Part shown: in pieces, positions 1 to 52,407 of the stretch
Layout of the letters: the number at the start of each line of letters is the position of its first letter
Numbering within the stretch: position 1 is the stretch's first letter
Source of the DNA: Microthyrium microscopicum
Taxonomy: Eukaryota
Length of the DNA stretch: 64,000 nucleotides
Direction of reading: 5' to 3'
NCBI GenBank assembly: GCA_010405405.1
Contig: MU004243.1
Location: 739,340-803,339 of the forward strand
Program-made: the position numbers and the translations under genes
The notes under the pieces: generated by a model
Database searches by the model: none
Seen by the model: only the letters and a program-made list of their open reading frames with translations
What the model was told of the DNA's origin: nothing

Positions 1-1119
1 AACTTGAGCGATGGCGCAGAAGGCTCACTGCAGGATTCGAGACGAGGTTAGTTGAAGATGATGATGGGGGATCGTGGAGGGGTACGCGAGTACAGAAAGC
101 TAAGGAGGTTGCAGGAACTGGAATGTGTAAGAGAACTAAATATATAGCTTGTGCAGCGTAAGTTTCTATAGACCTGTCGCTCGAGTGAAGTGACGGCTTG
201 CTTCGGTGACTATTTTAGAACGAGGTTGTAGAGCGAAGCAGAAGCCGATAAGCAAGTCAGTGACCGAGCTATACGTTAGTGCAAGAGCATTCCAAACCTT
301 GGCTGATAGCGATGAGGCTGGGTCTCACCTGGACGAGTTCTATCCGATTGAGGGGAGGAGCTTGAACGAGCCAATTTGGGGAATGAGAGGTTACATCGGG
401 CATCGCTGACAAAATAGCTAACACAAGTCGGTACGATCAGCTAGGCTGCCAGCTGGTAAGAGTTTAGATAGGAAAATTAGGTCACTGAAGTGATCAGGAT
501 AGAGTGATAAAATTGTCTACCTCTATATATTGTCAGCTATAAGGCTGGGGAGCATTCTGATTGGCCAATATTACCTTCCAATGCTACAATTGTACTGTAC
601 AGTACAATGTTGAAGGCCAACTCGTTAAATCCTAACTTGGCAGGCACTACTTATTACTTCAACTAGAGATAATAGCGGCGACTTGGTAACATCGTTTCAG
701 TGAGCTACTCTTCCCGTCCTATATGAATCTTTGGAGTGCAATTGCCATTTTCAACCCCGGATTTTGCAAAACTCTAGAATTATATCGCAAATAAAGCTGG
801 TTACTTGCAAGCAAGTCAACTGATTTACTGAACCCAAGGTAGATTATCAGACTCTGTAGAATCAATTGTCTCTCTTAAACGACAAGCACCCGTAGTTATC
901 CTACTCCAGAGTATCGTTGACGTTGAAAACTGTGGCGACAGGTTTTGCACAGCCACAATTCTAAATATAGATTCTATCTCGACCCCTTTTCCAGCATGTT
1001 AAGCTTCATTTTATTCTCCAACTGCAACCGAACATTTCCCAGCTCAGCGAAAGTGAACCGGCCTCATCATTGCAGAGTTTGCCTTTCACCCAGCATGGGT
1101 TTCCTAATCATCAATTATC

Positions 1120-3954
1120 ATGGCGACACACATCACCGCGCATCAAAACTTGCTGATACACTTCGCGTCCTCGCGCCTACGACTGGATCCCTGGATCCCG
1201 TCTGTTTATGCATGGACGCTTGAGGTGCTCGGCTTTTATCTACGGATGTGCAGCTTCCAGTCTCCTGTTGCAATGGCAAATGGTCCACTATCTCGTCCTA
1301 TGCTCCCAATGCTTCTCGTCGCTACCAAGCCAATCCGAACTCACATAATGTCAAACAAAGGCCGATTGAGCAATAACCAGGCATATAACGAGTCTATCAA
1401 CAGATTCTATTGTCTAATATTATGGCACATGCTCATACTAGCGCTTCATCATCAGTCATCGCCAATTGTTTCGATCCGACTCAACAGCTTTATAGACTGG
1501 CCTTACAAATCCACGATCGTATACTTCGTCATCAAAGTTTCTATTGTATCAGAGCTTGGTATCGCTTGGAAATATGAGCCAGTGGAGTCTGCTTTAAGAT
1601 TGTTTCACCGAACATATCGCTTGGTTCCATTTATGCTCAGACTTGTGTTTGGGGACATTGTTTGGTCCACTCCAGGTCATCTAGGCCCGCTCCTCGCGAA
1701 GGCAGCCACGATGACCGCTTTCTTCTATCTCAGCAGTTTTCTCTTCGAGGCGATTGGCAATTGCTTATCCATGTTATATCGAGGAGCGATTTACTTCGAC
1801 AGAAGAGAGTGGTACTGGCCAGTTTGGGAATTCGCAGTTTGCTTGAGCTGGTACGTTGGGCAGCAACTGAAGCCGTCGGAACTGTCGGAACATCTCGATA
1901 ATAGGACTCGGGCTTGTTCGAAACAATTCGAATACACGACTTTGCCAGCTGATAAAGACACCATTCGGTTACTGCTAATTCACCCAAGACCTCCCACGAG
2001 TCCGTTGAAATGCACGCTATTCGAGACAACCATTTCTTCTCTACCACAGTACGAGGCCATATCCTACTGCTGGGGAAAGCCGGAGCGTAATTCAGAAATA
2101 GTGGTAAACGACAGGCTGCTCAAAGTTCCTGCAAACGCGTTGGAAGTCCTGAAAAACCGAAGCTCAGTATGGGAGCCAAAACTGGTCTGGCTGGACTCGG
2201 TCTGCATCAACCAGCGCGACAGCGTGGAAAAAGGCCGGCAGGTTTTGTTGATGACGGAGATCTACGAGAAAGCATCGACCGTGTCTGTCGAGCTTTTGGG
2301 TACTCCAGATGAAGAAGCAATCATGAATGCGATGACCTATAAAGCAAGTCAGCTTGGCGTTTCACCAGATTGCATCGAATCAATATGGCAAATGGAGAGT
2401 GGAGTTAAACCACATAAGACGGCAGTCCTGAAAAGATTTATGGCGAATATAGCAGCAGACGTCTTTGAAGAGCTTTATCAATCTTACTGGCGATGCGAAA
2501 CGACACATGAACGCGATATGTACGATCGTTTTGCTCCATATCGATTGTCACTATCTTTTGACATATTTCGTCAAGTGCTATCCAATCCCTGGTTTGAGCG
2601 CATGTGGATTGTGCAAGAAGTCGCTCTGGCTAGAGGCATTCGAGTTCGATATGAAGGTATTGAAATTCCGTGGGATCACTTTATTGCTGTGTTCGATTTA
2701 ATAAACACTAAACATCGCACGACAAGCTTGCTTCTCATGGACGGCCTTGACATAAGCCCAGAAGGAGAGTTCACCACGGACAAGACGCATCGCCCTATTG
2801 CATCTGCTACTTTTGACGCAATAGCCGAGATACGGAGGAGGATTCAGAGCAAGGAAGAGCTTCGTCTCGTGGAGCTGCTCGAAAGATTGCGCATGTTCAA
2901 GGCTACCAATGACAGAGATAAGATTTTCGCAATTCATGGTCTCTGCTCCACAAAACCGAATCATCTCCTCGAACCTGATTACAGTAATTCCAGAACCGAT
3001 GAGAGCATTTTTATCAATGTAGCGGAGTGTCTCGTTGAGGAGGGCGACGCATCTAGAATGCTTGCGGCAGCTGGAACCCCATGTAGATCAAAAGCCAGCC
3101 CAAAAAGTCCAATGCTTATGTCAGGACACCTTGACCTCGTTCAATCGAGTACAGTCTCGGGGCCAAACGCTTATCTCCTGACGAAAGATCTAGTGCTCCC
3201 GTCATGGGTGCCAGACTGGACGAGAATGCCTGCGGCTGCTCAGCTGTCTTTTGTCGAAGAGTCTATCGACTATCGAGCAGGAGGCATAAGAAAAATGAAA
3301 GCTAAAGTCAAGAATGGAGTTCTACACCTTGAAGACGGGCATATATTTGATAACATTGTTGAGCTTTGCGATACTTGGGAATATCACACTATACTTGACG
3401 AAGCATGGGAACAATCTAGAATTGACAAAGCCTCGGATACGATCAGGTTATCCATCACTAAAATACTTGAATCTCCACTAGCCAAATCCCGGTATCAGGG
3501 GGACAAGCCATTGGAAGAAGCTTTCTGGAGAACTGCCGTCGGCAATCGAGTCTTCGAAACGAATGGGAGCCCGGCTCCACCCAACCTCTCCGATGGCTTC
3601 AACCAGTTTAAAAAATCTGTGTATGGCCCGGTCAAAGAATTGGCAGAAGCATGGGGCTGGAAGAATGACAGAGATCTTCACATGTCTTCTATGGCGTCCT
3701 TTCAGCGCGCTGTGCTTAAATGTTGGGGTGGTAGGAGGCTCTGCATTACATCACTGGGTTTCATTGGAGCTGTTCCTCCATCATCCGAGCTTGGTGATCA
3801 AATTGTCATTTTCGCTGGCATGCAGACTCCATCAGTTTTGCGAGGCATGGCAAAACATCAGCATCGATATCTGGGCGAATGCTACATTCATGGGATTATG
3901 AACGGCGAAATGCTGGGTCCTGTGTGCGACGGCCGTCATTTTGAAATAATATAA
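1120..3954 (+). CDS. HET-domain (heterokaryon incompatibility, het-6-like) protein with long hydrophobic N-terminal extension
   Basis: 944-aa ORF with YEAISYCWG, WLDSVCINQ..EKGRQV.LM.EIYEKA, WFERMWIVQE, ATNDRDKIFA, LPSWVPDW, C-terminal GECYIHGIMNGE. True start uncertain. Confidence 0.9.
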   Translation: MATHITAHQNLLIHFASSRLRLDPWIPSVYAWTLEVLGFYLRMCSFQSPVAMANGPLSRPMLPMLLVATKPIRTHIMSNKGRLSNNQAYNESINRFYCLILWHMLILALHHQSSPIVSIRLNSFIDWPYKSTIVYFVIKVSIVSELGIAWKYEPVESALRLFHRTYRLVPFMLRLVFGDIVWSTPGHLGPLLAKAATMTAFFYLSSFLFEAIGNCLSMLYRGAIYFDRREWYWPVWEFAVCLSWYVGQQLKPSELSEHLDNRTRACSKQFEYTTLPADKDTIRLLLIHPRPPTSPLKCTLFETTISSLPQYEAISYCWGKPERNSEIVVNDRLLKVPANALEVLKNRSSVWEPKLVWLDSVCINQRDSVEKGRQVLLMTEIYEKASTVSVELLGTPDEEAIMNAMTYKASQLGVSPDCIESIWQMESGVKPHKTAVLKRFMANIAADVFEELYQSYWRCETTHERDMYDRFAPYRLSLSFDIFRQVLSNPWFERMWIVQEVALARGIRVRYEGIEIPWDHFIAVFDLINTKHRTTSLLLMDGLDISPEGEFTTDKTHRPIASATFDAIAEIRRRIQSKEELRLVELLERLRMFKATNDRDKIFAIHGLCSTKPNHLLEPDYSNSRTDESIFINVAECLVEEGDASRMLAAAGTPCRSKASPKSPMLMSGHLDLVQSSTVSGPNAYLLTKDLVLPSWVPDWTRMPAAAQLSFVEESIDYRAGGIRKMKAKVKNGVLHLEDGHIFDNIVELCDTWEYHTILDEAWEQSRIDKASDTIRLSITKILESPLAKSRYQGDKPLEEAFWRTAVGNRVFETNGSPAPPNLSDGFNQFKKSVYGPVKELAEAWGWKNDRDLHMSSMASFQRAVLKCWGGRRLCITSLGFIGAVPPSSELGDQIVIFAGMQTPSVLRGMAKHQHRYLGECYIHGIMNGEMLGPVCDGRHFEII

Positions 3955-5110: not shown

Positions 5111-6192
5111 TCACTTTAGATGTTTCTGAATCACTCCCCGAAGGTTGTCCAGCGCCTCTTCCAGGCCCAAGTCCTCAAGTTCGCCGACTTGAGCGTAGAT
5201 AAGCATTTCGTGATACACGACCTTAGTCCGGTGTTGCCGTAGCTCTGTTCTAGCCCGTTTCACGTCATGAATCGCTTCGCTTTTGGGGGAAGCCAGAATT
5301 GATTGAAAACTCGGGTGCTTGCATTCACTCATGCCTTCCTATCTTTCTGTTAGTTTTGTTGTAGACTCCAGGATTCCTAATGACTTACCAACAATTGCAA
5401 CTGTGAACACAATTTGTGTTCCATATCTTCACTCTTGACTCGACTTTGGCGCAATACGTTATAGGCTACAAGCAAGCTTTTGAGCGCCTCCAGTCGAAGC
5501 CGGTCGGTCTCACTCATCTGTCGCTGGGGCTGTGACTGCTCATTGTCGGTCAATACTTGGGCTGCATTTCGTTCGCGTGAAGAAGTAGTGAGAGGTGGGC
5601 TTATTAGGTAGGACTCTGGACTCATTCTAATGCGCTTTGCTGGAGTTCTGTCTGAAGAGTCTCCTTCTTCATGGCCACCGGGTCCAAAACGGCGTTTAGC
5701 CTCACTTTCGTTTTCCAGGCTGTCGTATTTCTTCTGTTTCAAAGCTTTGATACGGGTTGTCCATGCTTTGATAGTGTACCGGACGCGGTTGCGCCTTGTA
5801 AGTTCATTTTCTGGTTCGTTCAACATTCTGGGGTCTTTATGTAGGCCAGTGAGATCCTCGACCTGAACTAGCTCAAAGCCTGGAAACCAAGTGACTTGGT
5901 CCCAAAACTTAGAGTTCAACTTGGAGCAAGTGTCAAAGCCATGTGGATGATTCACTGTCCACGGTCCGTCGTATCCTTCCAAGTACAGTCCAGGGTTGCG
6001 ACGCGCTGCGGTCGACGAACTTGGGTCACCCACATGGTCTTGCATCAGGACATAGCGGCCCCTCATTCTTTCGTGCGGATAGTTTTCGTTGAGATATCCA
6101 ATGGCCCAAAGCTCTGGGCGTTTTGCTTCTTGTCCTTGGAATTCAAAAACATCGCTTTGCATGTCTCGACCAAGATACCTGACGGACGTCAT
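5111..6192 (-). CDS. Hypothetical protein, basic NLS-like motifs and helical C-terminus
   Basis: ORFs 5377-6339 and 5111-5332 join in frame via intron 5339-5388 (GTAAGT..CTAAC..TAG); first ATG 6192; AKRRF, PAKRIR. Confidence 0.6.
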
Positions 6193-6862
6193 TGTGGAGA
6201 GTGAGAGACAAATGGATGCAAAGGCGTAGCTAGTTCGATCAAGAAGCTTGAAGTATTGTAAGGCACAGCAGGGTAAGCAAGGAGACCGCTGTTCGTCGAG
6301 CAGAGGCTGAGAAGGTGAAACTACTGAGATGTTCACCAATCGAGCGCAGGCTACCAGTAAGATAAGGAAATAGCAGCAATGCTGTTATCTCAGAGCAGAA
6401 TGAAGAGATGAGAAATGGAGGTAGAAATGCTGATCTGCTTTGATATTACGATGTACTTATAGGCACCAACTCATTCCAAGACAACACATGATCTGAATCC
6501 TGTGTGTGAAGTTGCTACCCGTCATCTGCCGTCGGCTGAGTGAGGTTTGTTTGTTCATGTGTAGAAGGGGCGACTGCATATGAGACAACTCGGCTGCTTG
6601 CAACTGCCAAAATTCCTATGAATAAAAGGGAGGGGCCTACAAACCCAATCTGGCCAGATCATCATCTCTACATCAACTTCACCGTATACGAGACACCAGC
6701 ACTTCTCACTTCATTTTTTCGGAGCTGCTACGCGATCTGTATCTACCTCCTGGGCATACGAGTTGGCATACGACAGGTAAAGTCGCCTGCAAAGGATTTT
6801 CCCATGTCAGTAACTTACCTTCTACGCAGCCGACCATCATTACCCAAGTCTGCTGCCCTTCG

Positions 6863-7281
6863 ATGATGCTCCCGCAACCCTCGTCAATGCTGAGCCACGC
6901 TCTTGACCAGTCTTTAGTGGCACTTGATCAACTGAACAAAAAGAGAAGACGAGATCACGACAACGAGGCTTCCCTTGAAGATGTAACAATCATCGACCAC
7001 CAGCGAGTTGAATGAAGCTGACCAGCATATAGGATGGTGAAGAGAATGCTTTCGGAAAGAAAGAGGCATACAAAAATATTATCGCCTTTGCGACCGATAT
7101 GAAAAGATTGCCGGAACTGAGCCAGAAAATTCACGAGCAGATCCTAGAATTCGACAAGAGAATTGAAAGCCTGGAAAAACTCCTGGAAGCCGAAAAGGGA
7201 TTTTACGAATCCTTTTATGAAGATTCCAGGGTGCCAGACGAAACAAAAGATTGTCAGTCGGGAAGCAACAACACCAGCTAG
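6863..7281 (+). CDS. Small hypothetical coiled-coil protein
   Basis: MMLPQ..KKRRRD exon, putative intron ~6983-7032 (GTAACA..CTGAC..TAG) in frame with ORF 7099-7281 (heptad-like ILEFDKRIESLEKLLE). Confidence 0.4.
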
Positions 7282-7599
7282 ATTTCGCCAAACAGTTCGA
7301 GACAGATGACTGTAAAATTTATTCTTTTCCATGCAAGGAAGGTGAGCGACAACGAGCTACCAGTCAGATCTTTCCCTCCTTCATGGAACAGTGGGAAAGC
7401 AGCACTAGCAAAACTATATCATGACTTGACGCATTTACGAATTATACACATATTGAGCAGAGGTCACTGTGAGAAAAAGGAATAGACTAGCCAACAAATA
7501 AAATCTCATTCGGATGGGAAACTATTCGCTTGCCCGGTACATCTATTAATCATGATCTACAAGCGCAATTCTCAAATTACTACCATGCAGGTTTCGATA

Positions 7600-8529
7600 T
7601 CAGAGAGTCGATGCAGTCGGCACTGCTTTATTGCCAGAGCCTTTCTTGTTACCAAGACTCTTCAAGATATCATCTACACTTAACGATCCGCCATTGTAAG
7701 GTAGTACATCTTTACTATCCAGTGAATAGTTCAATAGCGAGCCCTTGCCAGGAGTACCAGTACAATATGCCACGCCAGACTTGAGCTTGCAGTCAGAAGA
7801 TGGGTCGAGAGAACTACCAATTGTCATATATGTTAGTGCAGTATACAAAAAATTAGATATGATGGAGAAACATACGGATTCCAGGCCATAAAATCAGTCA
7901 TTTGTACCTGGAAAGTCCTGGCAATACCAGCACATCCACTGGCTCCACGAGACGCGAACCAATTCGTACAATCATTCGGTGCTCCCTTGCTCGTTTCGAA
8001 TCCCTTTCCTGGAGGAGGTATTGGCTTGAGGTGGAAGTTTATGTTGTCTACATCTGCGGGAGGTGCGACTTTGGCAGAAGGGTTTACGCCCATACAATAC
8101 CATTCGCCAGTGCCAGGGTGGAAACCGGAACAATCAACCTTGACAGATGGGTTCTTGAAGAATATGTTAGCTGCTGCGCGACATAAACTGGGAAGGAACT
8201 CTACCCAGGCGTAAAATTCCCGAGGTGATACTACGATATCCGGCTCTGATGTGATGATTGTTTCGCACGTTTCAACTTAGTAAAAATTAGCAGTAGTGAC
8301 CTTGACATTGGTAGCTGTCCGTTTTCGTGGTACTCACGACGAAATGGTTGGGCATAGTGAGCACATTCTTTCGTAGTATCCTTGGCATGATAGATGAATT
8401 CGCCAACTTGACGTTCTGTTGATATATTAGCGGGAACTGATAAGTAGTGGGATAAGTATGAAACCTACTTCCGATCGTGGTAGCGAGGCTTGCTCCACAA
8501 AGTAGAAAGCTACTCAATAACAACTTCAT
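7600..8529 (-). CDS. Secreted protein with two fungal-type LysM domains
   Basis: Four introns (8416-8468, 8276-8337, 8154-8204, 7814-7875) give signal peptide + KR + ETCETII..EFYAWNPSVKVDCSG..YC and GCAGIA..DFMAWNPSLDPSSDC..YC. Confidence 0.85.
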
Positions 8530-9238
8530 GCTTGCGAAGGACTCAGAGAATAGCTTTCTAATTTCCGTATCTTCTCAAAGAAATTGTTTTTGAAATAAGT
8601 ACTCGATGAGCCTTAAGCTCACAAGCTCTCCATAGCGATCAAGTAGGCTGATAGTTGGCTGATCGTAATTTCGTTATGTGCAGAGGTTTAGATTACACTC
8701 ATAAAAATCATGAAGCTAGTGCTATAGATTCTGATATTACGCACGGAGTATTCCGCATGCTTCATTGCAGTTACCCCGAAACTTTCAGGAATAGGGCTGA
8801 ATCGGTGTCGATCAGTGCTATCTTGAGCCAAAACTGCCTATTTTGTTCAGAATCTACCTAAATTGGCTGGACTGTCCAGATTGTATTTATTCGCCCCAAA
8901 GAATGGCAAACTCTGAGAATCGCAAACGTTGAATGGAGCATTGGTCTTTACACTGCTACGGGAGCGTTAACGTTGGAAAAACTATGTTCCAACGAGCCTG
9001 AATGCTTTACACATTACTTCCAGGACTGGGAGAACTTAAAAAGCAACTCCAAGGCTAGATACGCCCCTAGCTGTGTACTTGGTAGGTAAGATAATGGTAA
9101 TTCTGATTCCTATGGAGCTGTAGACTTGCGAAACCTTTTCTATATCATCTATCTGAAATACATGGTAGTAAACAATAAACTGACACAAAAATCCATCGTC
9201 GACCAGACACAAAGTACAAGTGAATTTTATTGGGTGTT

Positions 9239-11922: not shown

Positions 11923-14262
11923 ATGTCTATCTTATTCTCCCGGGCCAGGTCAAGCTTCGGCTATGTTATGATTCTCATAGCAGGCCTACTGTTTCAGCAT
12001 ACACTCGGTTTGTCTCTCTTTAACCCAGAGTTGGTGGAGAGACGCAGCTCAGACAACGTCTCCGCCAATGGACAGTTACTAGAACTAGACAACGTCTTTT
12101 TATTGCACCCACAAGCAGTCGCCGCAGAACCATCGCCAAATCACCAAAGCACCTGGAAATTCTCACCACGCAACTTATTTGCTCGCGATACAGGCTGCTG
12201 TAGCGGAACATGCTTCACTGGCACCAATCTAGTCTGCTGTCCCACATCAGCAACCCCGTTAGCATGTAACAATGGTATAGGCTGCTGTACTGGTGGTGGA
12301 AGTTCCGAATGCTGCGGTCATGCCGATGATATTTGTTGCCTTGGAACCTGTTGTCTTGCAGGCTATGTATGCGCTGGTACTAATAACGACCAATGTGGAT
12401 ACAGAACGTACGTACAGAATCGATAAGCTTTTGTTGCTTGGGCATCGCTGCTCGTACTATCAAATCGAGGCACGCAAGCTAACTTTACCAGGGTGACCGC
12501 GACCAACTATTATACGACCTTTGGAACGACAACTATAGTAGTCACAAGCACGAGTACAAACACCTTCACTGCGACTTCTACGTATACATCCACTTCCACT
12601 GTCCTTGAAACAGTGTCGAATGTAAAAACTGCGACGGCCGTTGACACTACAGTTATTATATCCAAGAGAGGCATATTCACTACTCCAATTTCGAGCACAA
12701 GGCTTACCAGCACAACCGCTACTAGCACAGAAACAACGAGTACAGAGGAGACGGTACCACCCAAGGCCACAGAGTCTCCAACTCATTCTTTGTTGGCGCC
12801 AGAAACTATTGACAGCCAAGCACTTCTGGCCCGAAAGGGACGCATCGGAAAGAGAACCGTCGATCCCATTACCGTAACAACCACGCAAGTGGTCAACGGA
12901 GGCACTTATACTCAAACATCAACATATGTGGCCGGAGCGTCAGTCACAACCACTTTAGTTGTTACAGCTTATGCTACAGTCACATCAACAGTTGTAGTTG
13001 GTGCTCAAACAACTGTGCATGTAAAAACCACATCTACTACGACCACTTCGGCGAAAGCCACCGCGGCTGCAAAATCTACTTCAGGCAACGCACAAGCAGC
13101 TGGCGGGCAATCAAATAGCGGTCAGACAACAAACCCATTTACAGTTACGGGCCCTGTCGCGCCAGCTTTATCAACTCTCCGCGCTCTTGTTCCAGCCAGC
13201 GCTCAGACAGATCCTACTGCTGCCTGCTTCATCCAATCCTCTTACTCCGCCTGCTACGCCACCCCTACCTGGTGGTCATCTCTCCCCGGCGACTCTCAAA
13301 CTTACTTTTCATCCGTCAACTCAGCCAACAATGCTGCTTGTACATCGTGTCCTGCTAGCGGTGGCTCCGCTGGTCTTTCCACTGGCGCCAAAGCCGGAAT
13401 TGGTGTCGGCGCCGTGGCTGGTGTCGCAGGAATCGCCGCACTGGTCGCTTTTCTCATTAAAGCCGGCGTTTTCTCCTCTGTAGCCGGTGGCGGAGCGGCA
13501 GCGAACTCAGCAGCCATGACTGCAAATGTATCTTCATCCGCGGCACAGGCTGGTAATGGCCAGGCCGCGATGAACAGCATGTCAGCTGGCCAGGCGGGTC
13601 AGGCAGGACAAGCACAGATGGCTCAAGGCGCGATGGGCACTCAAGGAGCTGGATGGAGTGGAGTTACAGGGCAGTCCGGCGCACACGCTGGCTGGTCTGG
13701 GGCGATGGGTCAACCCGGTGCACAGGCAGGATGGACTGGAGCGATGGGCGCTCCTGGAGCTCATGGAATGCCTGCGGGTGAAATAGCTGGACTTACAGCA
13801 GCTGGTGTTGCAGGCGGTGTCGCGGGTGGTGCACTGCTGGGTCGAAGAAGAGAGAGTGAGCAGTCAGTATCTCGACGGCCTGTAGCGGGCAGTACGATCA
13901 GCCATGATTCTGGACTTTACACTGCTTCGCCTACTATGTCCTCTTCACAACCTGAGGGCTACACGGATTATGACCATCCGCAAGTATATCAGAACCAGCA
14001 GCCATATCAACAACCACACCAACAGCCATACCAGCAGCCATATCAACAGCAATACCAGCAACCTCCACAGTACCAAGCTTATCAGCAGCCTCAGCAGCAG
14101 CAATATCCTGGTGGACGCCAGAACATGACTCGCTCGATTCCAGAAATGGGTCCTGTGCCTGTTAGTCCGCCGCTATCTAGTAATGGAGGCCAGGGACACC
14201 ACGAGATGGCAGGGAATCAGATTTATGAGAGTGATGCTGCGGAAAGAAGAGGGTACCCTTGA
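11923..14262 (+). CDS. Type I membrane mucin-like protein: CC-repeat Cys-rich head, Thr/Ser stalk, TM helix, low-complexity cytoplasmic tail
   Basis: ORFs 11923-12426 and 12493-14262 joined by intron 12408-12491; repeated CC doublets; LSTGAKAGIGVGAVAGVAGIAALVAFLI TM; QQPY repeats. Confidence 0.8.
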
Positions 14263-14484: not shown

Positions 14485-17400
14485 TCAAGTCTTTCCGCAT
14501 GTCTTCAGAATCTTTTGTACAAGATCATCGTTTCGTCTGAAAGACTGGGGAAACTTTGCCAGATCAGAATCTTTCAAACCCCGACGGGCAGCACTAGCTT
14601 CAGTAAGAATGTCCTCATCCAGCTTCGCAACCTTGCCACCACCGCCGATGCCCGCCAAAAGGCCTATAATGGCAAATGGGGCAGATTCTGGATCGCTGAC
14701 GATGTCTTCAATGGTCAAAGCAGCATTTCCAGCCTGGTCGATTACCAGTGCAATTCGAGAGACTGCGACTGCGCCACCGAAGGCTGCACCCAGTGCTTCA
14801 CCTGCAAATGGAAGGACCATAAGAACGATGCTCAATATCATCAAGATTAACTGCTTCTTTTTTTCATCGTGCACCTTTTGCCCGATGTCTTTGATGTTCT
14901 TCATGCTTGCGACGGCCTCTTGCAGCATAAGTATCGGCATGGACACTCCTGTAACAGCATCTTTCTCATCGCCTTGCAAAACACTCATACCCAAATCTGT
15001 AGACACTGCAAGTATGCCGATCTGAAGGTCGGTAATGTTCGGCATGACCTTTTGAATGATATCTTTCGGATTCGGCACATCCACCTTATCTGATTTCTGC
15101 GGAAAAGAGTGCCTTAAGTGTTGTAGCTTTTGGCATGGTTGAGATCCGCCTCCCGGTCGAGATTCCGGATTCAGTGCACAGGTGTATCCATCGTTAACAT
15201 CTCCAAACTTCACCCAGTCTTTAGGCATCCCAAGGTCCTTGGATATGGCATCATAGAAACCATTAGCGTCATTCAGCTCATACGTTATGTCGTAACGTTG
15301 ATCTAGCTGCCAGAACTTGTTAGGAGGAGGACATTGGTCAGTGCCTTTTTTGTTCCCAGCTTCCCAATGGCAAATAAAGTATTTATTGCCAGGCCCTTTG
15401 TCCAGGTCCATGTAGTCCTTCAGGCGGGGGCTGATACTGTCTTTGACCCAGTCCACATAGTAACCGAACTTGTCGTCATAACCCGCAGCTGCATCGGCAT
15501 AATCACTGCTGAAATTTTCCATGGACTCGGAGAGAATTTCCATTGTAAATTGAGCAGTGCAGTGAGAAGGGACACTGTCAAGAGCGGCCGCAAGGCCTTC
15601 CAAGTTTCCCGGGTTCTGACTTGGGTGACAAGCAAGATCCGGCATGACAAATTCAGTGTCATTACCTCCTCCAACAGAGCCTTGCCAGTCTTCTAAATCT
15701 ATTGCCCAATCGGTTGTCCCAGCAAAGTTCAGGCTCTTAATCCAGTCGGTTCGCCGAGCTTTGACATCGCGATCCATCCAAGCCACCCAGTCAGCTGCGG
15801 CGGCATCCCCATACACAAGAATGTTGGAGTCAGACTCGACATCTACGTAATTGGTGAAAATTGTGTAGTTGGCCGGGTTCTCAATATTGTCCCTGATCTC
15901 AGCATCGGCAATGTAACCAGCTGTCTCTGTGCATAAGCCGGGATATGCATCGGAATGAGCTCTAGAGCCTGTGTATGTGCACATTGGGCCGTCACATTTC
16001 CAATCTGACATTCGAAAGCTTCGACCATAACTCGAAACTCCGACCATGATTTTGCTAGCGGAGACTCCTGCTTTGGTTATCATAGAAAGAACGTTGGAGG
16101 TCTCAGTTTTATTGACATGAGATCGTAAACAATTCCCCCCTGGGCAACCGGGAATGGCATTTTTGTTGCCGTAATCTGTTTCAAGCGTTAGATTATTATT
16201 ACAAACATCCAATAGACCTACTCACCCCATTGTCCGTGGAGATCGTAAGTCATGTAGATGAAATAATCTACATATTTCTGCATGTCATTGACAGGAAAAG
16301 CTCGCAAGTACCAGAAAGAGGCCGGCAGAGCGATTGAGAGAGACGAAATAGCTGGCATTTTTGATCGAACGGACTTCAAAAAGTTGAGATAGTTTTGGCC
16401 TTCTTCTGCGCCACCTGGAGGAATACCAGGAATATCCGGTACTCCTGGGTACTCCCAGTCAAAGTCTAAGCCATCCAGGCCATACTTGTTCAGAAAGGAA
16501 ACAACATTATGGGCAGTGGCTTCCACATTGGCTGGTGCGGTGGCCTGTCGGAATATCATGTAAGTCGCTGGTTCTGTAGAAAATGCCCAACCTCCGAAAG
16601 ACATGATTTTTTTGATGCCCTTCATTTGAACGAATTTGGCAAACTGATCTTCCATTCCTGTTATGTTTACTTGAAAGTTTGGTGTTAGAGTGGCGAAGGA
16701 AAAGTGTATGTGAGTGAAGTTGTTTTGGTTAATCTGGGTGACATCCATGTTAAGGCATCTTCGATCTTGGTTCCACGCGGTAAAATATCCAACACGAGAG
16801 AAGCTTGAAGGTTGGTTTTTGTTATTTACTATATCCATGCCGCAGGAGCCTGCGCAGCCATTCTGTTGTGTGGAGGTGCCTGGTGCACCGGTGTCTGCTA
16901 GATGCTTCGTACAAAAGTCGTCAGTTGTTCCACAGTAGCCCCAGATACTGCAGCATGCATTCAGCGGGCATAGATTGAGATCTTCTAGCTTGGTCCCATT
17001 TGTAGGCTTCTGTGTTCCTTGGACTTGCGGGCCGCACACCAATCCTGCCGACTGAGCAGGCATTGGCGGATCCCCGGGACTTAAGCATAGTAGTTGACCT
17101 GGCTTGAGTTTGCTACAACCTGCCCAGCCCCAAGTATTCTGATTGTTGTTTGTGATATCACCTTGTTTTATGCCGTTTTTGTTTGCAATGGCCCAACACC
17201 CTTCACCTGCAAGTACCTGGTACGTGAAGCAAGTTCCATCCGGACCCGGTGAGACTGTTGGAACGGCGATCAACGTTCTGGTAGAGTTCCAATTGAAGCC
17301 AGTGGCGTTCACATTGATAGATGAAGCACCCGAGAACGAGCTGTGCACACCTATCTCTATTTCTCCACCGGACTTGGGAAGATCTAAACACTCAGAATTG

Positions 17401-18143
17401 GACCACGTGCTAACTGCTTCCTGAATCTTGGCCAAGTCGGGGATTCCGCCACCAAATGCTCCAAATATCCAAGATTCGGAAGATCTAGGAGTGCAAAGTT
17501 GAAAGACCTGATTGCTGGGATCTGTATGTTTCGCGAAAATATCGAGAAGATCGGCTCCTGCAGATTGTTGAAGACCGAAACCAGCATAGCTGCCAACAAT
17601 GGCACCTCCCGACTTGGCGAAGAGGAGCCTCTGACCGCATGACGGGGTGCTCTTGAAGTAGTGTGCTAGATGCTTTGCTGCAGCTGAAATATCGGGCACA
17701 GTCGCCGGAATAATGCTGGCACTGCTTCCCCAGCGAGACATGATTCCAACTTTTTCGATCCTGGTGTTACATTCAGAACTGTTGGGAGCGGTATCCAGAA
17801 CTGTGCCGTTTGTCGTCGTATTTGTCTCTTTGTATTGGGGTGTGATTGATGCTGATGAGGAGTAGTCTTCCGCGCCGCCAGACACGCAAACCCGAAGAAC
17901 TGTTTCAGCATTTGAATCTTTGTCCGAATAAGGAACATTTATGTCGAATAGCAGTGTCCCCATGCAGTCGATTAAGACCTCTAGTGAGTGATAAGTTGTC
18001 CACTGAGATGGATCGGGTCCGGCTTCATTGCATAAGCGCGGACAAATGTCAACATAAATCCCAAAACGACCTCCAGTTACGCCCTCAGAGGTATGGAGGT
18101 TGCAAAGAATCAAGGAGACGAGGAAATGGTATCGGATTTTCAT
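14485..18143 (-). CDS. Subgroup C GH18 chitinase (LysM + CBM18 + GH18 + hydrophobic C-terminal region), killer-toxin alpha/beta-like, ~1200 aa
   Basis: Signal peptide; LysM (YQVLAGEGCWAIA..WGWAGC..LCLS); hevein-type CPLNACCSIWGYCGTTDDFC; SFGGW and catalytic DGLDFDWEYP; MTYDLHGQW; intron 16176-16225. Confidence 0.93.
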
Positions 18144-18486
18144 GCTGAAAATGAAATGTAGTTTACTGGCAACCTGCGTCTTGAAGAAAACTTAAAGCAA
18201 AAGGAAGGATAAGCTAGAAACACTGGAGGATCTCTTATCTATATGCCTAAATCCTTTTTGTTTCAAGTCAGCAATGTTAGAAGAAATTTGATAATTGGGC
18301 GGCGATGCTAGCTCTTCGCCGCATAAAGTGTTGCGAAAGGACTGATTGAGCAGGTAGCAAGCCTAGGATTTAGAATATAAATTGAGGATTCAGCACACAG
18401 TTTACGGGACAGTTCAGAATCCAGAACTTTTAGAGATGACATCTTAATTAATTCTACCTGGTCAATGAAGAAGGCGATCTGTTCCT

Positions 18487-20100
18487 TCAGGAAGAATGCT
18501 CGCCTTCTTGCAAATTACCAAAATTGACATCGCCTTTGTAAAGTCCCATCCAACCACCTTCCCAATTAGAGGCCTTTTCTCTCAGCTCCTCCGACGCACA
18601 TACGAAAAGTTTGATCATATTTGCATTTACTTGAATGCCTCTGCACCCGTAGATTCCTTCATCAAAAATCTGATCTAGATGACCTGCTGAGATACTCCCC
18701 TGTAACCAAGTCGTGGTCGGCTCTTTGTCACGAATAACCGTATTTTCATTGAGCCTCTGAACGAAATTACCCACTTTCGTGAGATCGATGTCCATAGCAG
18801 CAGCACGTCGCTTCAAATCTTCAGCGTAGTGCTTGTTGTGGCTTAATTGAGCCTCCTGAAGCAGAACATTGTGAGGTACAACGTCCAGGGAGTCGTAAGT
18901 GCTCTGATAATCGGCTACAATACAAGCGTGTGCAATTTGCTGCTTCATAGAGGGCCTCCGATGAGCGAGCTCCTGAAGTGTCGTTTGCTGTGGCCACGCA
19001 GGATACCATATCAGATAAGGTAAAACATAATCTGGAGTCTCGTCTGTTATTGAAGATATATCGTTGTCCATGATGAAGCGCGCATTGATGGCCGCTTCGA
19101 TATCCCCTATGTCGCCTCTTCCTTTTAGTGAACGCTTTCGCTCCTGGAACCACCATTTGGCAAACATGGTGCTATGGTATATTCCTCGGATCACGCAGAA
19201 AGTCTCGAGTTGCATAGATTCTGGGCGACGAAGGCGAGCATATCGATCAACATTGCCGTCATAAGCAGCCATCAAGATGAGTAAATCTTTATTTACGGTA
19301 GGAAGATCGAGTGGTAAGGGATTGTAAAGGAGAGGAACATGTTGAGATTCTAGATTCCAGGTTTGTTCGAAAGACCACTTGTATCCTTCTTCGTCCACAC
19401 AACGATCCTCTGTGATGTCGAAATAGTGACCTGACCAGTTATCCAGCCTGCGCTTTTGGTCGAGTGATTTCCGGACAGCAGTATCGCCGTTTAGAAAGGC
19501 GCCAGCCCTGGGATTTTCGATGTTGATAGATCGAGTATAATCGTCCATAATGGAATATCTAACAGTCTGACTGATGATATCTTCGAATATTATATGCCCA
19601 TTTTCCGTACCCTCTCGGGCTTCCTCTGCTATTGATACATCGGGGAGCAGTCCAAGCTCACGGTACAGGTCGACATATCCTGCTGCTGCACATGCTCGAC
19701 CAACGCTGTAGCGCATGTTGGGATAGCGCTGCGCTAGAGTGCGATATGTTCTTTCGGAAGCGAATTCTGGATGCCAGATGCAGTACGGAAAATGTTCTGA
19801 TTGATCGATTTCTGGTATAATGTTGCTCATGATGAATCTGGCGTTACATGCCCGAACAAACTGAGGAAATGCTCCGTCTCGGCAGAGTTTGTTTATCTGA
19901 GAAGACCTCGCAAAAGAATAGTGGTATCGGATGCCGCGAACAATGGCCAATTGGGCTCTAGTATCACTGGCCGCCACCGGACTGTCTAGAGGAAGAGACT
20001 TCCCTTGAAGGGCCAGTATGCATTGCTCTGAATCAAATCTCTTAGGTTCAGTTTCCGATTCCGATGTTGACGACCAATCGCTTGTAATGCTATCCGGCAT
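18487..20100 (-). CDS. Non-secreted hypothetical protein with internal two-fold repeat
   Basis: Intronless ORF, first ATG 20100, no signal peptide; duplicated unit RGI..H..FA / NARFIM.N / PY.IW.P / L..R.P.M..AC..A.Y / EA. Confidence 0.8.
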   Translation of the reverse strand: MPDSITSDWSSTSESETEPKRFDSEQCILALQGKSLPLDSPVAASDTRAQLAIVRGIRYHYSFARSSQINKLCRDGAFPQFVRACNARFIMSNIIPEIDQSEHFPYCIWHPEFASERTYRTLAQRYPNMRYSVGRACAAAGYVDLYRELGLLPDVSIAEEAREGTENGHIIFEDIISQTVRYSIMDDYTRSINIENPRAGAFLNGDTAVRKSLDQKRRLDNWSGHYFDITEDRCVDEEGYKWSFEQTWNLESQHVPLLYNPLPLDLPTVNKDLLILMAAYDGNVDRYARLRRPESMQLETFCVIRGIYHSTMFAKWWFQERKRSLKGRGDIGDIEAAINARFIMDNDISSITDETPDYVLPYLIWYPAWPQQTTLQELAHRRPSMKQQIAHACIVADYQSTYDSLDVVPHNVLLQEAQLSHNKHYAEDLKRRAAAMDIDLTKVGNFVQRLNENTVIRDKEPTTTWLQGSISAGHLDQIFDEGIYGCRGIQVNANMIKLFVCASEELREKASNWEGGWMGLYKGDVNFGNLQEGEHSS

Positions 20101-20958
20101 GACTTGGTTGTAGACTACGAGAAACAACTGTATTGGGCTGTTTTAGTGTTGACTTAAGCCAAAGATTATTTCAAAAATGAAGAAGAGAACAGAAGTTGCG
20201 GTTTGAAACACAGAGGACTTGTGCAAGCAAGGTGGAGTATCGAATATAATGGATCAGGTAAGAAGAGGGCTACGTCCCGTATTCAGACCTTTTATGTTGT
20301 TCTCCCTTGTCGTTAATCGAATCCTGCAGCCCCGTTGATCCTTCCTTGGTCGATGATGTATCTATCAGAAAGGGCATACCTTAGGGCTCATTTCCTTATA
20401 TCCCGTCTCGCCTTCGACATGAAGGCATGAAGGCATGAAGGCAGGCTTCCTACCCTAAACCCCTACTTTAAGAGGAGGTATCTACCATAACCTAGAGGGA
20501 GTAGTTGTAGAAATAGTGTATGAAGCTTTTATGCATGAGATTGTAATTTTTCGCCCTCTCGTGATTGAGTCTAAAAGAACATCGTGATTACCATAATAAA
20601 ATAATTCTCGCCATTGGGTCTTTCCTAAGATTCCCATTCGGTCTTGTCAGTTACCCCCCGCGTAGAAGACCAACTCCATCGACCTAGATTGCTGCCTACC
20701 TAGGTAGGTACCTACCTGTTGCTACTTCTTTGATGTTTTGTGTTGCTTTACCGATACTCAAGTCCAGCATACCCGGGGTAGGTAAGGATCATTGCAGCGA
20801 AAAAATACGAACATGCACATTGATAAGCGTCAGACAAGAGACGACACATGAATAGCGACTTCATTCTTACTGGCATAACAGAGTAAACCTTCAGGGGCAT
20901 TACATACTAATTCTGTCTTTAGATTTCGGCAAAACTTGTGTTTGGGAGGTGAGCCGTC

Positions 20959-21993
20959 TTACTTGCATACTCCACCTTCGTTGTGCTTTACCATTGCTTG
21001 CCAAGATATTTTCCAGGCTTCTTTTACCTCATAATGAGATATTGTGGCAGGCTGGTATTTGGGAAAATACTTCTCTTCCCATTTCCCCTCGCCATAGCCT
21101 TTGACCCATTTCCTAAACAAGTTTCTTTTCGTACGGCTGTCGAACACGTCGGGGTTTGCTTTGATAGTAGTGTCGGTATTAACTTTGTTAAACGGATCCT
21201 CTGGATCGAGTTTATTATCCTCTGGAATTGTTTTAATATTGTCTTCAGGAAGTCCAAATCCATTTTGTGCCTCCTCTCTTGTGAGATCATTGCGCATGTA
21301 GGAATAGAATTCTCCGTTTCGCAGGTATTTAATGGCTTTACCGCAGTCCTGCATATTTTTGGCTTTCTCAGCAACATCATAGTTAATGTTCTGGGCTGGA
21401 CCTTTCCATTCGCTTTGTGGAGTTTGCAACGCTTTTTCCATACTCTGATGCACTAACTCTACCTATTGAGAATTAGTTTGCGTAGAAAATATTCTTCAAA
21501 TCACTCATGTCGATCGTGTCGGTACCTTTCAGTGGGACAACCACATCTAGACCAATCATGAAAAATAGAAGTTTCCAGAGAAGAATTAACCTACCAATTT
21601 AAGATACACGTTCCCAGTTTTCAGCAACCGATAGTTGATTTTCCTCGGTTTGAAAAGATTCACGTAGCCGGCGGCTTTCAATTCATTCGCCACGACTTCG
21701 ACATCCCGTCCCTCGCGTGGTCCTTCAATCTGGCATCTATAAGGATACACATCCGAGACATTGTCAATGCATTCTTGAAATGTGAAAGTGTTCCCAGGCC
21801 CTGAACGCGAAGGCTGCAGCCCTCCTCTTTGCTGTGGTATCGGCAATATCACGTTTTGGGTGTTTCCCTCGATTGTATTGAGGATCAGATATGCCTCACA
21901 GAAATATACTCTTTCGTAGGAACCTGAGAGACCTTTTGCAAAAGCAGTGGATGTGAGGCACGAAAGGCCGATGAAAGCTGTTTGAAAAAACAT
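20959..21993 (-). CDS. Secreted ~300-aa protein, candidate gamma-toxin (anticodon nuclease-like) subunit
   Basis: Signal MFFQTAFIGLSCLTSTAFA; intron 21463-21594 joins the two ORFs in frame; mature N-terminus KGLSGSYERVY; ends SHYEVKEAW..GGVCK. Gene model is solid; function is inferred. Confidence 0.7.
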
Positions 21994-23268
21994 CTAGACC
22001 AAGTCTTTCTCGTAAGAGATGAACTTCTGGTCATAAACTGAATTTGAGCACTTGTTTTGTCAGTTTACAAACAACTTTGGAGCAGTAGAAGCATACATAC
22101 AGCGACTGTAGAGATACCAAATTGGTTGGTAAAGAACGAATAATCTTGCAAGCTGGGACACGACCGCTTTCCATAGATGGTGCATTTCTACATAAAGACA
22201 TTTCAGAACTCTCTACGCCGCAATTCAAGAGAGAAGAAACAAACGATGCGTATATCGTTCCTTAAGGATTCATTTTCACATCCCTAGCACGCAAGGATGA
22301 GATAAAGCTGATAGTCAGATTGTGTTACAAGACGGTGCTTCAAACATCCTAGTGCCTATCAGCCACTAAGACCAGGAATCAGTCCGGAAGGAATACTAGA
22401 GTAAAATCAATGGTAAGAACATGATATACCCTTGTACGTAGGTGAAATTACCTTTTACTACCATGGGAAATGTAGCATATTGTCTAGCAAAACCGACTTC
22501 GCCGCTCAAATCATACAACGTTGTGGGAAGGTAGTGCACTCCAGCTTTTGATGTCAGTCAGGGCACGTAGGATGCATATAGATATGATGGAGTTAATTGT
22601 TGACCCATAATGAAGTGCGAGAAGAAGGCTTTTACTAATAGGCAACAATGTTGCATTGCATTTCTTATCTGGCTTATACTGGATATCGTCGGTGCGAGGA
22701 TATTCATAAAGTAATCTGCCTCGTCATTAGTTATATCTAAGAACCTGAAGAAAGTTTGACGTCGCCATAAAATAATTTGCAAAGTAAACTACTGTGCCTC
22801 CTTATTCCTGGAAATCCAATGTGTTTGAACTACTTTGGAGGGTTCATTACTGAATCCTGTCAAGATCGTAGTGGGCATCACTCCCAACTTTACCGCCTCA
22901 ATGACACAAACAGAAGGTTACATTGGCCATTATATACCTATAGCACATCACTTGGACAGTCTCGATCTGTGCAAGGAAAATACTGGGCCTCGAAGGAATG
23001 TATGTAGTAGTCAATTTGGCTGTAATTGTACAAGGTGAGCAACTGAGAAATTGATTGTTGTGAAAGTAACTTCCGTGACGGAAGCAGATATCTAGCAAGT
23101 TTGACAAGGTAAATATCATGCGCCTCGACCAGTCGGCTCACGCCTAAGATCTCTCACTTCGGTACATGAATCTTATGACGGACAAACTCTCAATTCATTC
23201 CTTCAACAAACACACGTTATCCTATACTGTGCAACTTGAAAGACCGAAGACATCCCCAATACCAGAAT

Positions 23269-24226
23269 ATGACAATGTCTAGACTTAATGTAGCTATACA
23301 TCTTTTTCTACAGGCATCTACTCTCAGGACGACGATAGCTCAGGACAATCTTCTTGCCCCCCTCTACATCGACAACGTTGAGTTCTTGGCAGCTTCATCA
23401 AATCTTGCGAACGTTTCGTTCCCAATCCTCCAGACTGCGTTGAAGTCTCCAAATGCAACGAACGAGTCTTTCTTCACTGGTTATGATTGGACGAAGCCTT
23501 TTCCTGGTTCTGCTATCGATGGCCACGGAGCCCATCTTCGTGTCGCGTTCGACATTCCCATTCCCGATAACATTTTGGAAAATGCAACAACAGCTGTAAG
23601 CTCCCTCACTTTCAGTATCCCGAATAAAATGTCAGGGAATGACGGTGCTCCTACAGCCATGGACCCCTCCTGGTACATTTGCCGACACATTTTTGTTACC
23701 GACAAGGTGAATCATACCACTGTTGGCAAGGGAGGCGACTCTTGTGGTTTTCTCACCTCTGAATGTAAAGAAGACTTGAAGGGCAACCTCACCCAAGGTT
23801 GGATGAAAACAGACGACAGTACTCCTTGCTCCGGTCTGGCGCTTGATCCTATACCGCAAAGTTGCATTGGCTCATTTGGGTTCGCTCGCGCTGACGTGAT
23901 TGGTAAGTGTTGGCTAAAAAGTGAAAGCTGCCGGAACAACACTTCTAACATTTACTGCAGCTTTCGACTCGAGCTATATGGCGGACGCGGCACAGGCGAA
24001 GCTTTTAGCTGTGGATGAGCAGAATCAGAATAATTGGAGGATTGGAACCGGTTATCACGACAAAGGGAGTCAAGCTGCCTATGACACGGCCAATAACCGA
24101 ACATTTCTTCTTGTTAATGTTTGGGGTTATAGCGAGAAGCTTCCTCAAGGAAACCGAAAAACTCCAGATGCCACACTCTCATGTTTGTCTACGAAAACCA
24201 ATGCTACAAATCCGAAAGATGAATAA
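23269..24226 (+). CDS. Secreted Cys-containing hypothetical protein
   Basis: Signal-like N-terminus, many N-glycosylation sequons, several Cys; intron 23903-23960 joins ORFs 23236 and 23921. Confidence 0.75.
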
Positions 24227-27435: not shown

Positions 27436-29828
27436 TCAACTTACAGGCCCAACATTGCCATCCGTATTCTTCAACTCCTTCATCTTATAACACTTCTCCA
27501 TCACCTCCTCACCCGTCCCGTTAGGCAACGTCAAGATCCCGAACTCAATGATGCCCTGGAACCCACTCGAATACTCACTCGAGCCATAAAACCCAATGAT
27601 CTCCTCATCTGGGCCACCCTCCAGAGCATGGACTTGAACATCGTCACCCCATCCCCTATTCTGGTTCAATTCGCCCCAAGACGAGCCATCGGAAGCATGC
27701 ATGCGCATACCTAGTAGTTCATGACCTTGAGATGTAATCTCAACTTTGGTGATTTTGGTATTGGCATCGATACTGTGACTTTCGCTTGCGTGGCCGCCAA
27801 AATGGTGGTCATGTCCATGGCGATTCCAACGAGGACCACATGGAACTACGGTGCCGTCTGAGTAGGTCACTGTAGCGCCGTCAAGGATTATGCCCACTCG
27901 ACAGTCTATGGACTTTGCGAAGACGGCTGTGGGTTGACTTGTTAGTGAGCGTTCGCCTTGGTTTCACACCCCACCTTGTGGTAAATGGTAGTGAATGAAA
28001 GGAAAAACTTACTTTCGCCATTTTTCTTCTTGTCCTTGAGCAATACTGCCCACTCCCATTTTTGAATGTTGTCAACTTCAGCTTTCTCACAAGAGACGCT
28101 CTTCTTGGAGATGGTGACGTTTGTTCCTGGAATGCGAATGTAGGAGACACTAGAGAACTGTTTCCAGACGTCTTTGATGGTCTTTTCTTTGCCATTCATG
28201 CCCAAAATATGCATCTTGAGATTTTCTGTACGATCGAAACGTGCCTCCAATTCGGCAAGAGAAAATGAGACTGATTCTGCGGGGTTAGTCACAGTTGGAG
28301 CTTGCTCATCAGCATCTCCAAATTGAATTCTTGCAATGCCAAGAGAACCACAGCTGACAGTAAATCGAGGACTTTCTGAGTTCTCGGCGTCAATTATCAA
28401 ACTCGGCAGAGCTTCTCTGTCTTTTCGGCTTAGGAGTGGATCACCAGGTAATCGGAAATGAGATTGATGCTTAAAGGACAAAGCATCCAGAAGATTCCAG
28501 CGAGCTGTGTTGTCAGTATCATTGTTTACGACTTCGAGGCCAGGGGTTTTCCTGGAAGTACAGTACTGGGTGAACGGCAAGAAGTTGCGTGGCCAGTGAA
28601 CGGGGTATCCACGTTCCATAATACCCTCTCTGTGAGGAAAGCCGAATGCGTGGCCGACTTCATGTAGAAATGCTCCTTGGCCGACAGAGCAGGCTTCCCA
28701 CATGCTTGTACACTCACCTGCATCGTTGCACACCATACTTCCTGGAGCGCGCCCGTCTGTCAAACAACCTGCAACTTCCTCCAGGAATCGCGGCCATGAA
28801 TATGTCAAATGGCTTCCCATCATGCCAAGGGATATACCCTGAGCATTATGGGCACCAAGTGCAGCATGTGCAAGAAGCAGGTCCTGATCCACGGAATAGT
28901 GAGAGTCCAAGATCAGACCGGCGACAATCGGATGAGCCTCTGGGTCAAATGCGCCGCCTTGATTCTGGAGGGCGGCAGTGAAGTATTGGTGCAGAGCCTG
29001 GTCGTTGCGAGCATGGGGATTTTGCTGTGCAACATTGGGATCGCGTAGTTCTTTAGTGGTCTTGTCTGATCGTACCACATTGACTTTCGCCGTGGATCGC
29101 ATAGCGGAGCTCGTGCTGTCATCGTGGGACAAGCGGCCATCGGCAGCAGCGCTCAAGAACTCGCGAGACACAGTGTCTAGAGCCCATTCTTCGTCGAACC
29201 GGAAGGATCGTCGGCCAAGTCCTTTCAATCGCATGTCTTCAGCTGTGAGGGCTTGCCACATGTAAGCAGTCATACGGAACTTGGCAATTGCGGCTTGAAA
29301 GTCGCTATGTGTTGTCGAGAGACCACCGGCTTTGGATGGCGGACAGTCGATGATGAGCGGAGAGTCTTTGGCGACCATTATGGCAAGGTGCAATGGTGGT
29401 GTTTGGAGAAGAGGAATGTAGTTTAGACGCACAACCAGATCAAGGACTTTGAAAGCAGACGAATCGGGACTGTCAGCTGTTGAGCCGAGAGACAAGGTGA
29501 ATTCATTGCATCCTGGAGACAGAAACACTAGAGCTTTGAAATGGTTGCAAGCCAGCGGGTATGACTGAGATGGGAAAAGTTCTTCGCCTGAAGTTGAAGT
29601 GGTTTTGATGGCAATGAAGTTCTCAACGGAGTCATTCGCAATGGCTTGAACATTTTCAATATGTCCGACTAATAGAAGGCAACGCTATGGAATCGAATCA
29701 GCTTGAGATATCACAAGGAATCGAGTTGTGAAAGTTACTTGGTAAATTGTCTCATCATGTTCAACATTGTCGAGCTTTAATTCTGCTTGCTTTGCCTCAG
29801 CTGAGTTTCGATACAGAGATAATTTCAT
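27436..29828 (-). CDS. Putative zinc metallopeptidase with C-terminal jacalin-like domain (YIL108W-like)
   Basis: GAFLHEVGHAFG zincin motif, AYMWQALTAE, LGRRSFRFDEEW; C-terminal IIGFYG beta-prism-like motifs; introns 29685-29738 and 27927-28012. Confidence 0.85.
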
Positions 29829-36209: not shown

Positions 36210-36931
36210 GATGAATGAAACTTGGCTGAGAACATGGAGATTGTTCAAGCAAATACGCGGCGGATAGCACTCAATTTATAGGACACCAGCAGGTGCGGAG
36301 AAAGTTACTTCGCTAATACTACTGTCCTATGATTGAGCGTATGAGGATTTGGATGCTTTCGTAAGGTCGTTTAGATGCTTTGGTAATGGTGATCTTAACA
36401 GGGGTGGTTCATCCTTCGTGTTTTGAGCGAATCAGACCAACAAGAGGACTGACGACACGAGCTTTTTATCTGCTGATAAAAGTTGAATGCTGTCCGCGAG
36501 CAATCGTTGAGCGATAGGATTGATGTGATTCTGAACTTCCGGTAGAGAAATTGAGACGCGTAATATCCTTGCAGTCCGAGCTGTAGGCCTCCAAAAGCAG
36601 GGTTATTCGCAGATTTGAAGTGCTGATTTCCTGTAAATCAAGTCAACGGAATTCACTGAACCACAGAATCCCTAGAGTGGTATCACAGAAATCAAGAGTG
36701 TCGTAAATATTGTATATCTTAATTACTGACCAAATGCCAGCTTTTGAAATTGATGGCTCGCCATAACGCCTTTTCAGTCATGCACAATATTTATTCCAAG
36801 GCAGCGGTCATCGTGACAGTAGCACTTCCTATGAGTTCTTCCACCTATCGAATTCACATCCCACTTGCTGCTATACAGCATCAAGTCTACTGACAGACGG
36901 GGGGCGGTCTGTCTTTCTCCGAGGTCACCTT

Positions 36932-52383: not shown

Positions 52384-52407
52384 ATCCACTTAACTCCAAT
52401 TGTTTAT

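Follow-up and report, generated by a model that had tools for sequence, protein, structure and literature searches.

We examined a 64,000-bp stretch of contig MU004243.1 (positions 739,340 to 803,339 of the forward strand, assembly GCA_010405405.1; hereafter the window) from Microthyrium microscopicum, a Dothideomycete of the order Microthyriales. Three co-oriented genes lie head to tail on its minus strand between positions 14485 and 21993, encoding a secreted protein of 300 amino acids (aa), a non-secreted 537-aa protein with an internal repeat, and a chitinase of LysM-CBM18-GH18 architecture with a hydrophobic tail (Table 1). This arrangement had been proposed in a preliminary description of the locus, and both the list of open reading frames (ORFs) and the splice sites agree with it. 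All three reading frames are intact, the splice sites are canonical, and two of the three genes, those for the secreted protein and the chitinase, bear introns. The product of the first gene (P0001) is identical letter for letter to BT63DRAFT_418411 of M. microscopicum, which is located on a 1.14-Mb contig. On the evidence given below we read the locus, with a probability of about 0.8, as a nuclear, intron-bearing, zymocin-like killer-toxin cluster of the kind reported from Pezizomycotina in 2024, here in a Dothideomycete. An intron-containing nuclear cassette of toxin, immunity factor and chitinase akin to zymocin had also been the preliminary interpretation, and it gains support from the family of the middle gene, the conserved residues of the candidate toxin, the match of its model to structure 4o88 and the co-occurrence of the three gene families in other fungal contigs.

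Zymocin-like clusters in nuclear genomes of Pezizomycotina have been described by Heneghan, Salzberg & Wolfe (2024; bioRxiv 10.1101/2024.10.25.620242, cited here and below from its accessible text), so the earlier suspicion that chitinase-plus-toxin clusters of moulds might already be known proved correct. The described clusters comprise a gamma-toxin gene, a chitinase gene of subgroup C-II and sometimes an Imm gene, are nuclear and contain introns (bioRxiv 10.1101/2024.10.25.620242; mGem 2026, likewise cited from its accessible text). Their presumed role is to serve moulds as weapons against other fungi, and a use as starting points for biocontrol has been suggested (bioRxiv 10.1101/2024.10.25.620242).

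Table 1. Positions in the window of the three genes at 14485-21993 and of their exons, domains and candidate functional residues.
Feature	Position	Strand	Details
Candidate gamma-toxin gene	20959..21993	-	300 aa; from ORFs and a GT..AG intron; identical to P0001
Toxin exon 1	21595-21993	-	
Toxin intron	21463-21594	-	132 nt, GT..AG
Toxin exon 2	20959-21462	-	including stop
Predicted signal peptide, aa 1-19	21937..21993	-	cleavage after ..AFA (Ala19); by eye, -3/-1 rule
Glu27	21913..21915	-	in motif YER; Glu-8 after removal of the predicted signal peptide; candidate catalytic Glu
His276	21034..21036	-	candidate catalytic His, 23 residues ahead of the terminal Cys; corresponds to PaT His-287
Cys299	20965..20967	-	..GGVCK; candidate for a disulfide with the chitinase C-terminus
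Imm/YKP1-family gene	18487..20100	-	including stop (coding from 20100 to 18490); 537 aa, intron-free, P0002
Imm internal repeat 1, aa 84-169	19594..19851	-	aligns with repeat 2 (BLASTP E 8e-18)
Imm internal repeat 2, aa 337-424	18829..19092	-	BLASTP against repeat 1
Killer-toxin-like chitinase gene (alpha/beta-type carrier)	14485..18143	-	1202 aa
Chitinase exon 1	16226-18143	-	
Chitinase intron	16176-16225	-	50 nt, GT..AG
Chitinase exon 2	14485-16175	-	including stop
LysM (CBM50), aa 308-354	17082..17222	-	Pfam E 2.2e-4, 21.5 bits
CBM18 (Chitin_bind_1), aa 390-413	16905..16976	-	Pfam E 1.4e-9
GH18, from aa 451, across the intron	15697..16793	-	Pfam E 9.6e-32 (exon 1), 6.3e-7 (exon 2)
Catalytic motif DGLDFDWE, at aa 557	16452-16475	-	intact DxxDxDxE
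Hydrophobic C-terminal region (beta-like), aa 1078-1158	14620..14862	-	Kyte-Doolittle
Cys1199 of 1202	14497..14499	-	..KTCGKT; candidate partner of toxin Cys299

The middle protein, P0002, contains no hydrophobic 19-mer, and its two repeats align with each other (Table 1), in keeping with the non-secreted repeat protein that was originally described. A word-indexed search returned 752 homologues at an expect value (E) of 0.001 or lower among 8000 scored candidates. The best 120 of these 752 were all from Pezizomycotina or metagenomic, and every one of them carries, as does P0002 itself, the Pfam family PF28449.1, named YKP1_C (ESM Atlas, Pfam 38.1). ORF1/YKP1 of the Kluyveromyces lactis plasmid pGKL2 belongs to the Imm family, as do the immunity genes proven for zymocin, PaT and DrT (Heneghan et al., PNAS 2025, PMC11848437, accessible text). 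Going by its Pfam family, the middle gene falls in the known Imm/YKP1 family of killer plasmids. Its role had previously been singled out as the part of the locus most likely to be new, an expectation that did not hold because PF28449 (YKP1_C) is the killer-plasmid immunity family. A literature search for the term 'PF28449' found it in no paper. A complex prediction of Imm with the mature toxin scored 0.00 in a run without controls and is uninformative either way.

The candidate toxin was recognized by its conserved residues. Zymocin-like toxins are characterized by a Glu at position 8 of the mature protein together with a terminal Cys (bioRxiv 10.1101/2024.10.25.620242), and by a conserved C-terminal His together with a near-terminal Cys, represented by His-287 and Cys-317 of PaT (PNAS 2025, PMC11848437, accessible text). 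The window protein, a 300-aa precursor with a hydrophobic N-terminus and a signal peptide discernible by eye, agrees with the secreted protein of about 300 aa initially noted and fits the size of 200-300 aa for a small secreted protein beside the chitinase; 'secreted' denotes here a reading of the N-termini (hydrophobic, with a small -3/-1 site) and not the output of a signal-peptide predictor. Scanning 1.84 billion representatives with HMMER (filter-only) delineated a family of 16 proteins including the query, and a profile search brought in four more members, giving a 20-row alignment. Of 15 N-termini, 14 have the Glu of a Y/F-E-R motif at mature position 8, and the other has it at position 9. 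With the N-terminal fragments P0124, P0125, P0131 and P0136 excluded from the C-terminal counts, the His is kept in every member that reaches its column (16/16), 19-27 residues before the near-terminal Cys, and the Cys is present in 14/16, being absent from P0140 and from P0130, whose sequence stops at the His. By Glu-8, His and near-terminal Cys, the secreted 300-aa protein looks like a gamma-toxin. Neither of its exons matches any Pfam family, and the ESM Atlas gave no usable match for P0001, its own model of that protein being poor. Two members of the toxin family share a longest-contig value with an Imm homologue, P0134 with P0031 (10223) and P0137 with P0012 (37754), which hints at toxin and Imm pairs on shared contigs, unconfirmed so far.

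An AlphaFold2 model of the toxin, built on the 20-row family alignment, reached a predicted local distance difference test score (pLDDT) of 84.4 and a predicted template-modelling score (pTM) of 0.85. When the model was compared exhaustively with 48,161 representative PDB chains (VIA-align), 4o88_A was the top match at Z 8.5 and the runner-up had Z 5.5. This entry of 2014 bears the title 'Crystal structure of a C-tagged Nuclease' and comprises 316 residues. The alignment is collinear (model 20-289 versus chain 3-299) and covers 183 residues with a root-mean-square deviation of 4.5 Å and 12% identity; by calculation from the range ends, and not from a residue alignment, Glu27 falls close to residue 10 of the chain and His276 close to residue 286. 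The Z is moderate for a helical model, and the weight of the result lies in the first rank of the single chain predicted by the hypothesis, presumably PaT.

A moderate structural match, together with the lack of sequence similarity to characterised toxins, would also suit a secreted protein that is a non-ribonuclease effector travelling with the chitinase, or one that cuts rRNA rather than tRNA, as does the zymocin-like toxin PiT according to the accessible text of mGem 2026. We regard both variants as very improbable given the conserved pattern of Glu-8, His and terminal Cys, the first place of 4o88 among 48,161 chains and the finding, described below, that the toxin-family gene always adjoins Imm.

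The domains of the chitinase were confirmed with Pfam and its hydrophobic tail with Kyte-Doolittle 19-mers of at least 1.4 at aa 1078-1119 and 1138-1158. Near-terminal cysteines, reported at the outset for both secreted partners, are likewise present as Cys299 in the toxin and Cys1199 in the chitinase. LysM separates chitinase subgroup C-II from C-I (bioRxiv 10.1101/2024.10.25.620242), and with LysM, CBM18 and GH18 the window chitinase is a candidate for C-II, its LysM being marginal. No Hce2 domain was found at E <= 0.1 in either chitinase exon (Pfam). The region of about 300 aa ahead of LysM (17100-18080, aa ~29-360) matches no Pfam family and is kept, at 25-28% identity over ~360 aa, in the chitinases linked to Imm in four metagenomic loci (L010, L024, L030 and L067); it is best taken as an unnamed domain of cluster chitinases.

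Some C-II chitinases are found outside toxin clusters (bioRxiv 10.1101/2024.10.25.620242), which would leave room for the three genes to adjoin by chance, with a common subgroup C chitinase next to two genes that have nothing to do with it. Linkage in metagenomic loci contradicts this. We fetched 74 loci by alignment to Imm, which formed 49 distinct groups at 95% identity; 31 groups had a flank of 5 kb or longer to one or both sides of Imm and 18 were short. A chitinase matching that of the window at E < 1e-10 was found in 10 of the 31 flanked groups and in none of the 18 short ones. Five of the ten chitinase-linked groups (L010, L024, L026, L030 and L067) also had matches to a hidden Markov model (HMM) of the toxin family at E < 1e-3, and weaker matches were present in two more, L047 (E 0.003) and L034/L036 (E 0.008-0.02). 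The translated toxin pieces share the signal peptide and YER start, or the His...Cys end. Just as in the window, Imm has the toxin gene immediately upstream in all seven trio loci; the chitinase occurs on either side of Imm and in either orientation. The adjacency of the three genes is evidently more than chance, since it recurs in unrelated metagenomic fungal contigs. Co-occurrence of the three families elsewhere, which the preliminary description had named among its tests, was thus observed at 7 of the 31 flanked Imm loci. With a like chitinase at 10/31 Imm loci, a toxin-family gene at seven of these as well, and no other gene in the 64-kb window matching any of the three, we find a chance assembly scarcely credible.

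A Cys is located 3-7 residues from the chitinase end in seven of nine linked groups, L063 being outside this count. The two others, L032 and L070, have chitinases adjoining Imm (at 5264-8830 and 6237-7564, respectively) without the usual Cys C-terminus, and no toxin-family match was found there; these may be decayed clusters or carriers of another toxin family.

Several observations weigh against a zymocin-like cluster at this locus. Toxicity, RNA target, disulfide, Imm binding, secretion and uptake are all inferred by homology. The Imm membership of P0002 comes from precomputed Pfam labels and not from a direct alignment to a canonical immunity protein, and the LysM domain of the chitinase exceeds its cut-off of 20.9 bits by 0.6 bits. 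Sequence and profile searches of the PDB gave no link from the toxin family to a solved structure, those with P0001, P0002, A1 and A3 returning chance-level rows only. Foldseek found no match between the toxin model and the PDB at E <= 0.001; when its 402 chains were re-examined (399 aligned), none reached Z >= 5, and 4o88 was not among them. For a largely helical model such as this one, the tool warns of common helical arrangements at a Z of 8.5. The identity of 4O88, which we take to be the toxin PaT of Pichia acaciae (Chakravarty et al. 2014), is unconfirmed. No chitinase is present at 21 of the 31 flanked Imm loci, which means that Imm genes are frequently solitary, in keeping with their published occurrence outside clusters as well as within them (bioRxiv 10.1101/2024.10.25.620242; PMC11848437). 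Finally, the accessible text of the 2024 survey gives no cluster in Leotiomycetes or Dothideomycetes, and of three Pezizomycotina toxins tested in Saccharomyces cerevisiae two killed when expressed inside the cell and one was non-toxic (bioRxiv 10.1101/2024.10.25.620242).

The non-toxic protein and the solitary Imm loci would also be expected if the three genes were true homologues of a killer cluster that are silent, functionally decayed or repurposed, with the chitinase, for example, serving alone in nutrition or antagonism, or Imm serving only as a defence against foreign fungal toxins. The authors of the PNAS study indeed propose, in its accessible text, that solitary Imm proteins defend against exogenous toxins (PMC11848437), and the linked chitinases of L032 and L070 are without a normal C-terminus. 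Run X1, the kind of which is presumed, yielded a contig (14400-16719) that passes straight through the chitinase intron and two small pieces, showing neither splicing nor expression. Three intact frames with canonical splice sites, a preserved GH18 motif, the retention of Glu, His and Cys in the toxin and the maintenance of the trio in seven divergent loci nevertheless speak for a functional cluster, and we consider loss or change of function unlikely.

If the locus is a functional zymocin-like cluster, the following mechanism would apply. The chitinase and the toxin precursor would both be secreted, and the mature toxin (about 281 aa) would be tied through Cys299 to Cys1199 at the chitinase C-terminus. 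The chitinase would bind cell-wall chitin of a competitor fungus, with its hydrophobic C-terminal part aiding entry of the toxin. Inside the target, the toxin might use Glu27 and His276 to cut an RNA of the translation machinery, either in the anticodon loop of tRNA or in rRNA. The cytosolic Imm protein would bind and block any toxin retained by the producer or returning to it.

[quoted passage not shown] Moreover, toxicity has been shown for two of the published Pezizomycotina toxins, whereas that of the window toxin is predicted. Zymocin of K. lactis, encoded on pGKL1 with its alpha/beta chitinase, gamma-toxin and ORF3 immunity, combines the same three functions with a proposed disulfide-linked delivery. 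It resides, however, on a cytosolic linear plasmid, intron-free and dependent on a helper plasmid, in contrast to the nuclear cluster of the window with introns in two genes, and the two toxins have no detectable sequence similarity. The PaT/ImmPaT pair of Pichia (Millerozyma) acaciae, from pPac1-2, is linked to the window toxin through the top structural match, on our unconfirmed assumption that 4o88_A is PaT; it differs in the 12% identity over that alignment, and the window immunity protein has 537 aa and an internal repeat. In the Hce2-chitinase or Tox-P3 clusters, by contrast, an Hce2 effector domain is fused to the chitinase.

No paper reporting a zymocin-like cluster in Dothideomycetes was found in our literature search. 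It is conceivable, although we would lean against it, that this is the first Dothideomycete cluster of toxin, Imm and chitinase, with a toxin family (16 proteins in 1.84 billion, plus seven loci) that falls outside Tox-P1 to Tox-P9 and is paired with a classical Imm. Such a tenth group, the first in its class, would widen both the taxonomic range of the clusters and the range of toxins served by Imm. Overall, the novelty is modest, residing in the host class (Dothideomycetes) and a toxin family without an assigned Tox-P group, and the locus is otherwise an expected extension of published work. An intact cluster in a Dothideomycete would fill a gap stated in the founding survey and bears on the age and spread of the system. 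The recurrent adjacency of toxin and Imm in environmental contigs, in turn, offers several natural toxin/antidote pairs for tests of specificity.

The properties of the locus, which has introns and lies on a 1.14-Mb contig, are not those of a killer plasmid, or virus-like element (VLE); such an element is cytosolic, linear and intron-free, has a very high A+T content and carries terminal inverted repeats. A recent plasmid remnant was also ruled out on account of the introns, the G+C content (GC; 0.43-0.48 in the cluster, equal to its flanks) and the ordinary nuclear neighbours. Among these neighbours are an M3 peptidase spanning two ORFs with a likely intron (33890-36275, minus strand), a 'Metallopep' family peptidase (27945-29684, minus strand) and a CofD-family protein (50379-51566, plus strand).

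Two genes next to the trio were considered as further cluster members and dropped because the metagenomic loci yielded a single weak match between them. The first (23179-24226, plus strand) lies divergently upstream of the toxin gene, at a distance of about 1.2 kb, and encodes a probably secreted protein of no Pfam family; its product gave that one match (tblastn, E 2e-5), adjoining Imm in L065, a short locus, whereas the remaining loci gave none. The product of the second (12427-14259, plus strand), 611 aa long and rich in Ser and Thr, has a hydrophobic segment and a tail rich in Gln and Pro and likewise belongs to no Pfam family. This gene and the 3' part of the chitinase gene are spanned by a run X1 contig whose mean depth is high (147).

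Elsewhere in the window, a block of about 4 kb (52001-56000) has a GC of 0.29, against about 0.46 in the rest, and looks like an AT-rich repeat region, possibly degraded by repeat-induced point mutation (RIP). Near the other end, a large ORF (1108-3951, plus strand) carries a heterokaryon incompatibility (HET) domain (E 1.7e-23) and is a further conflict-type gene of the window.

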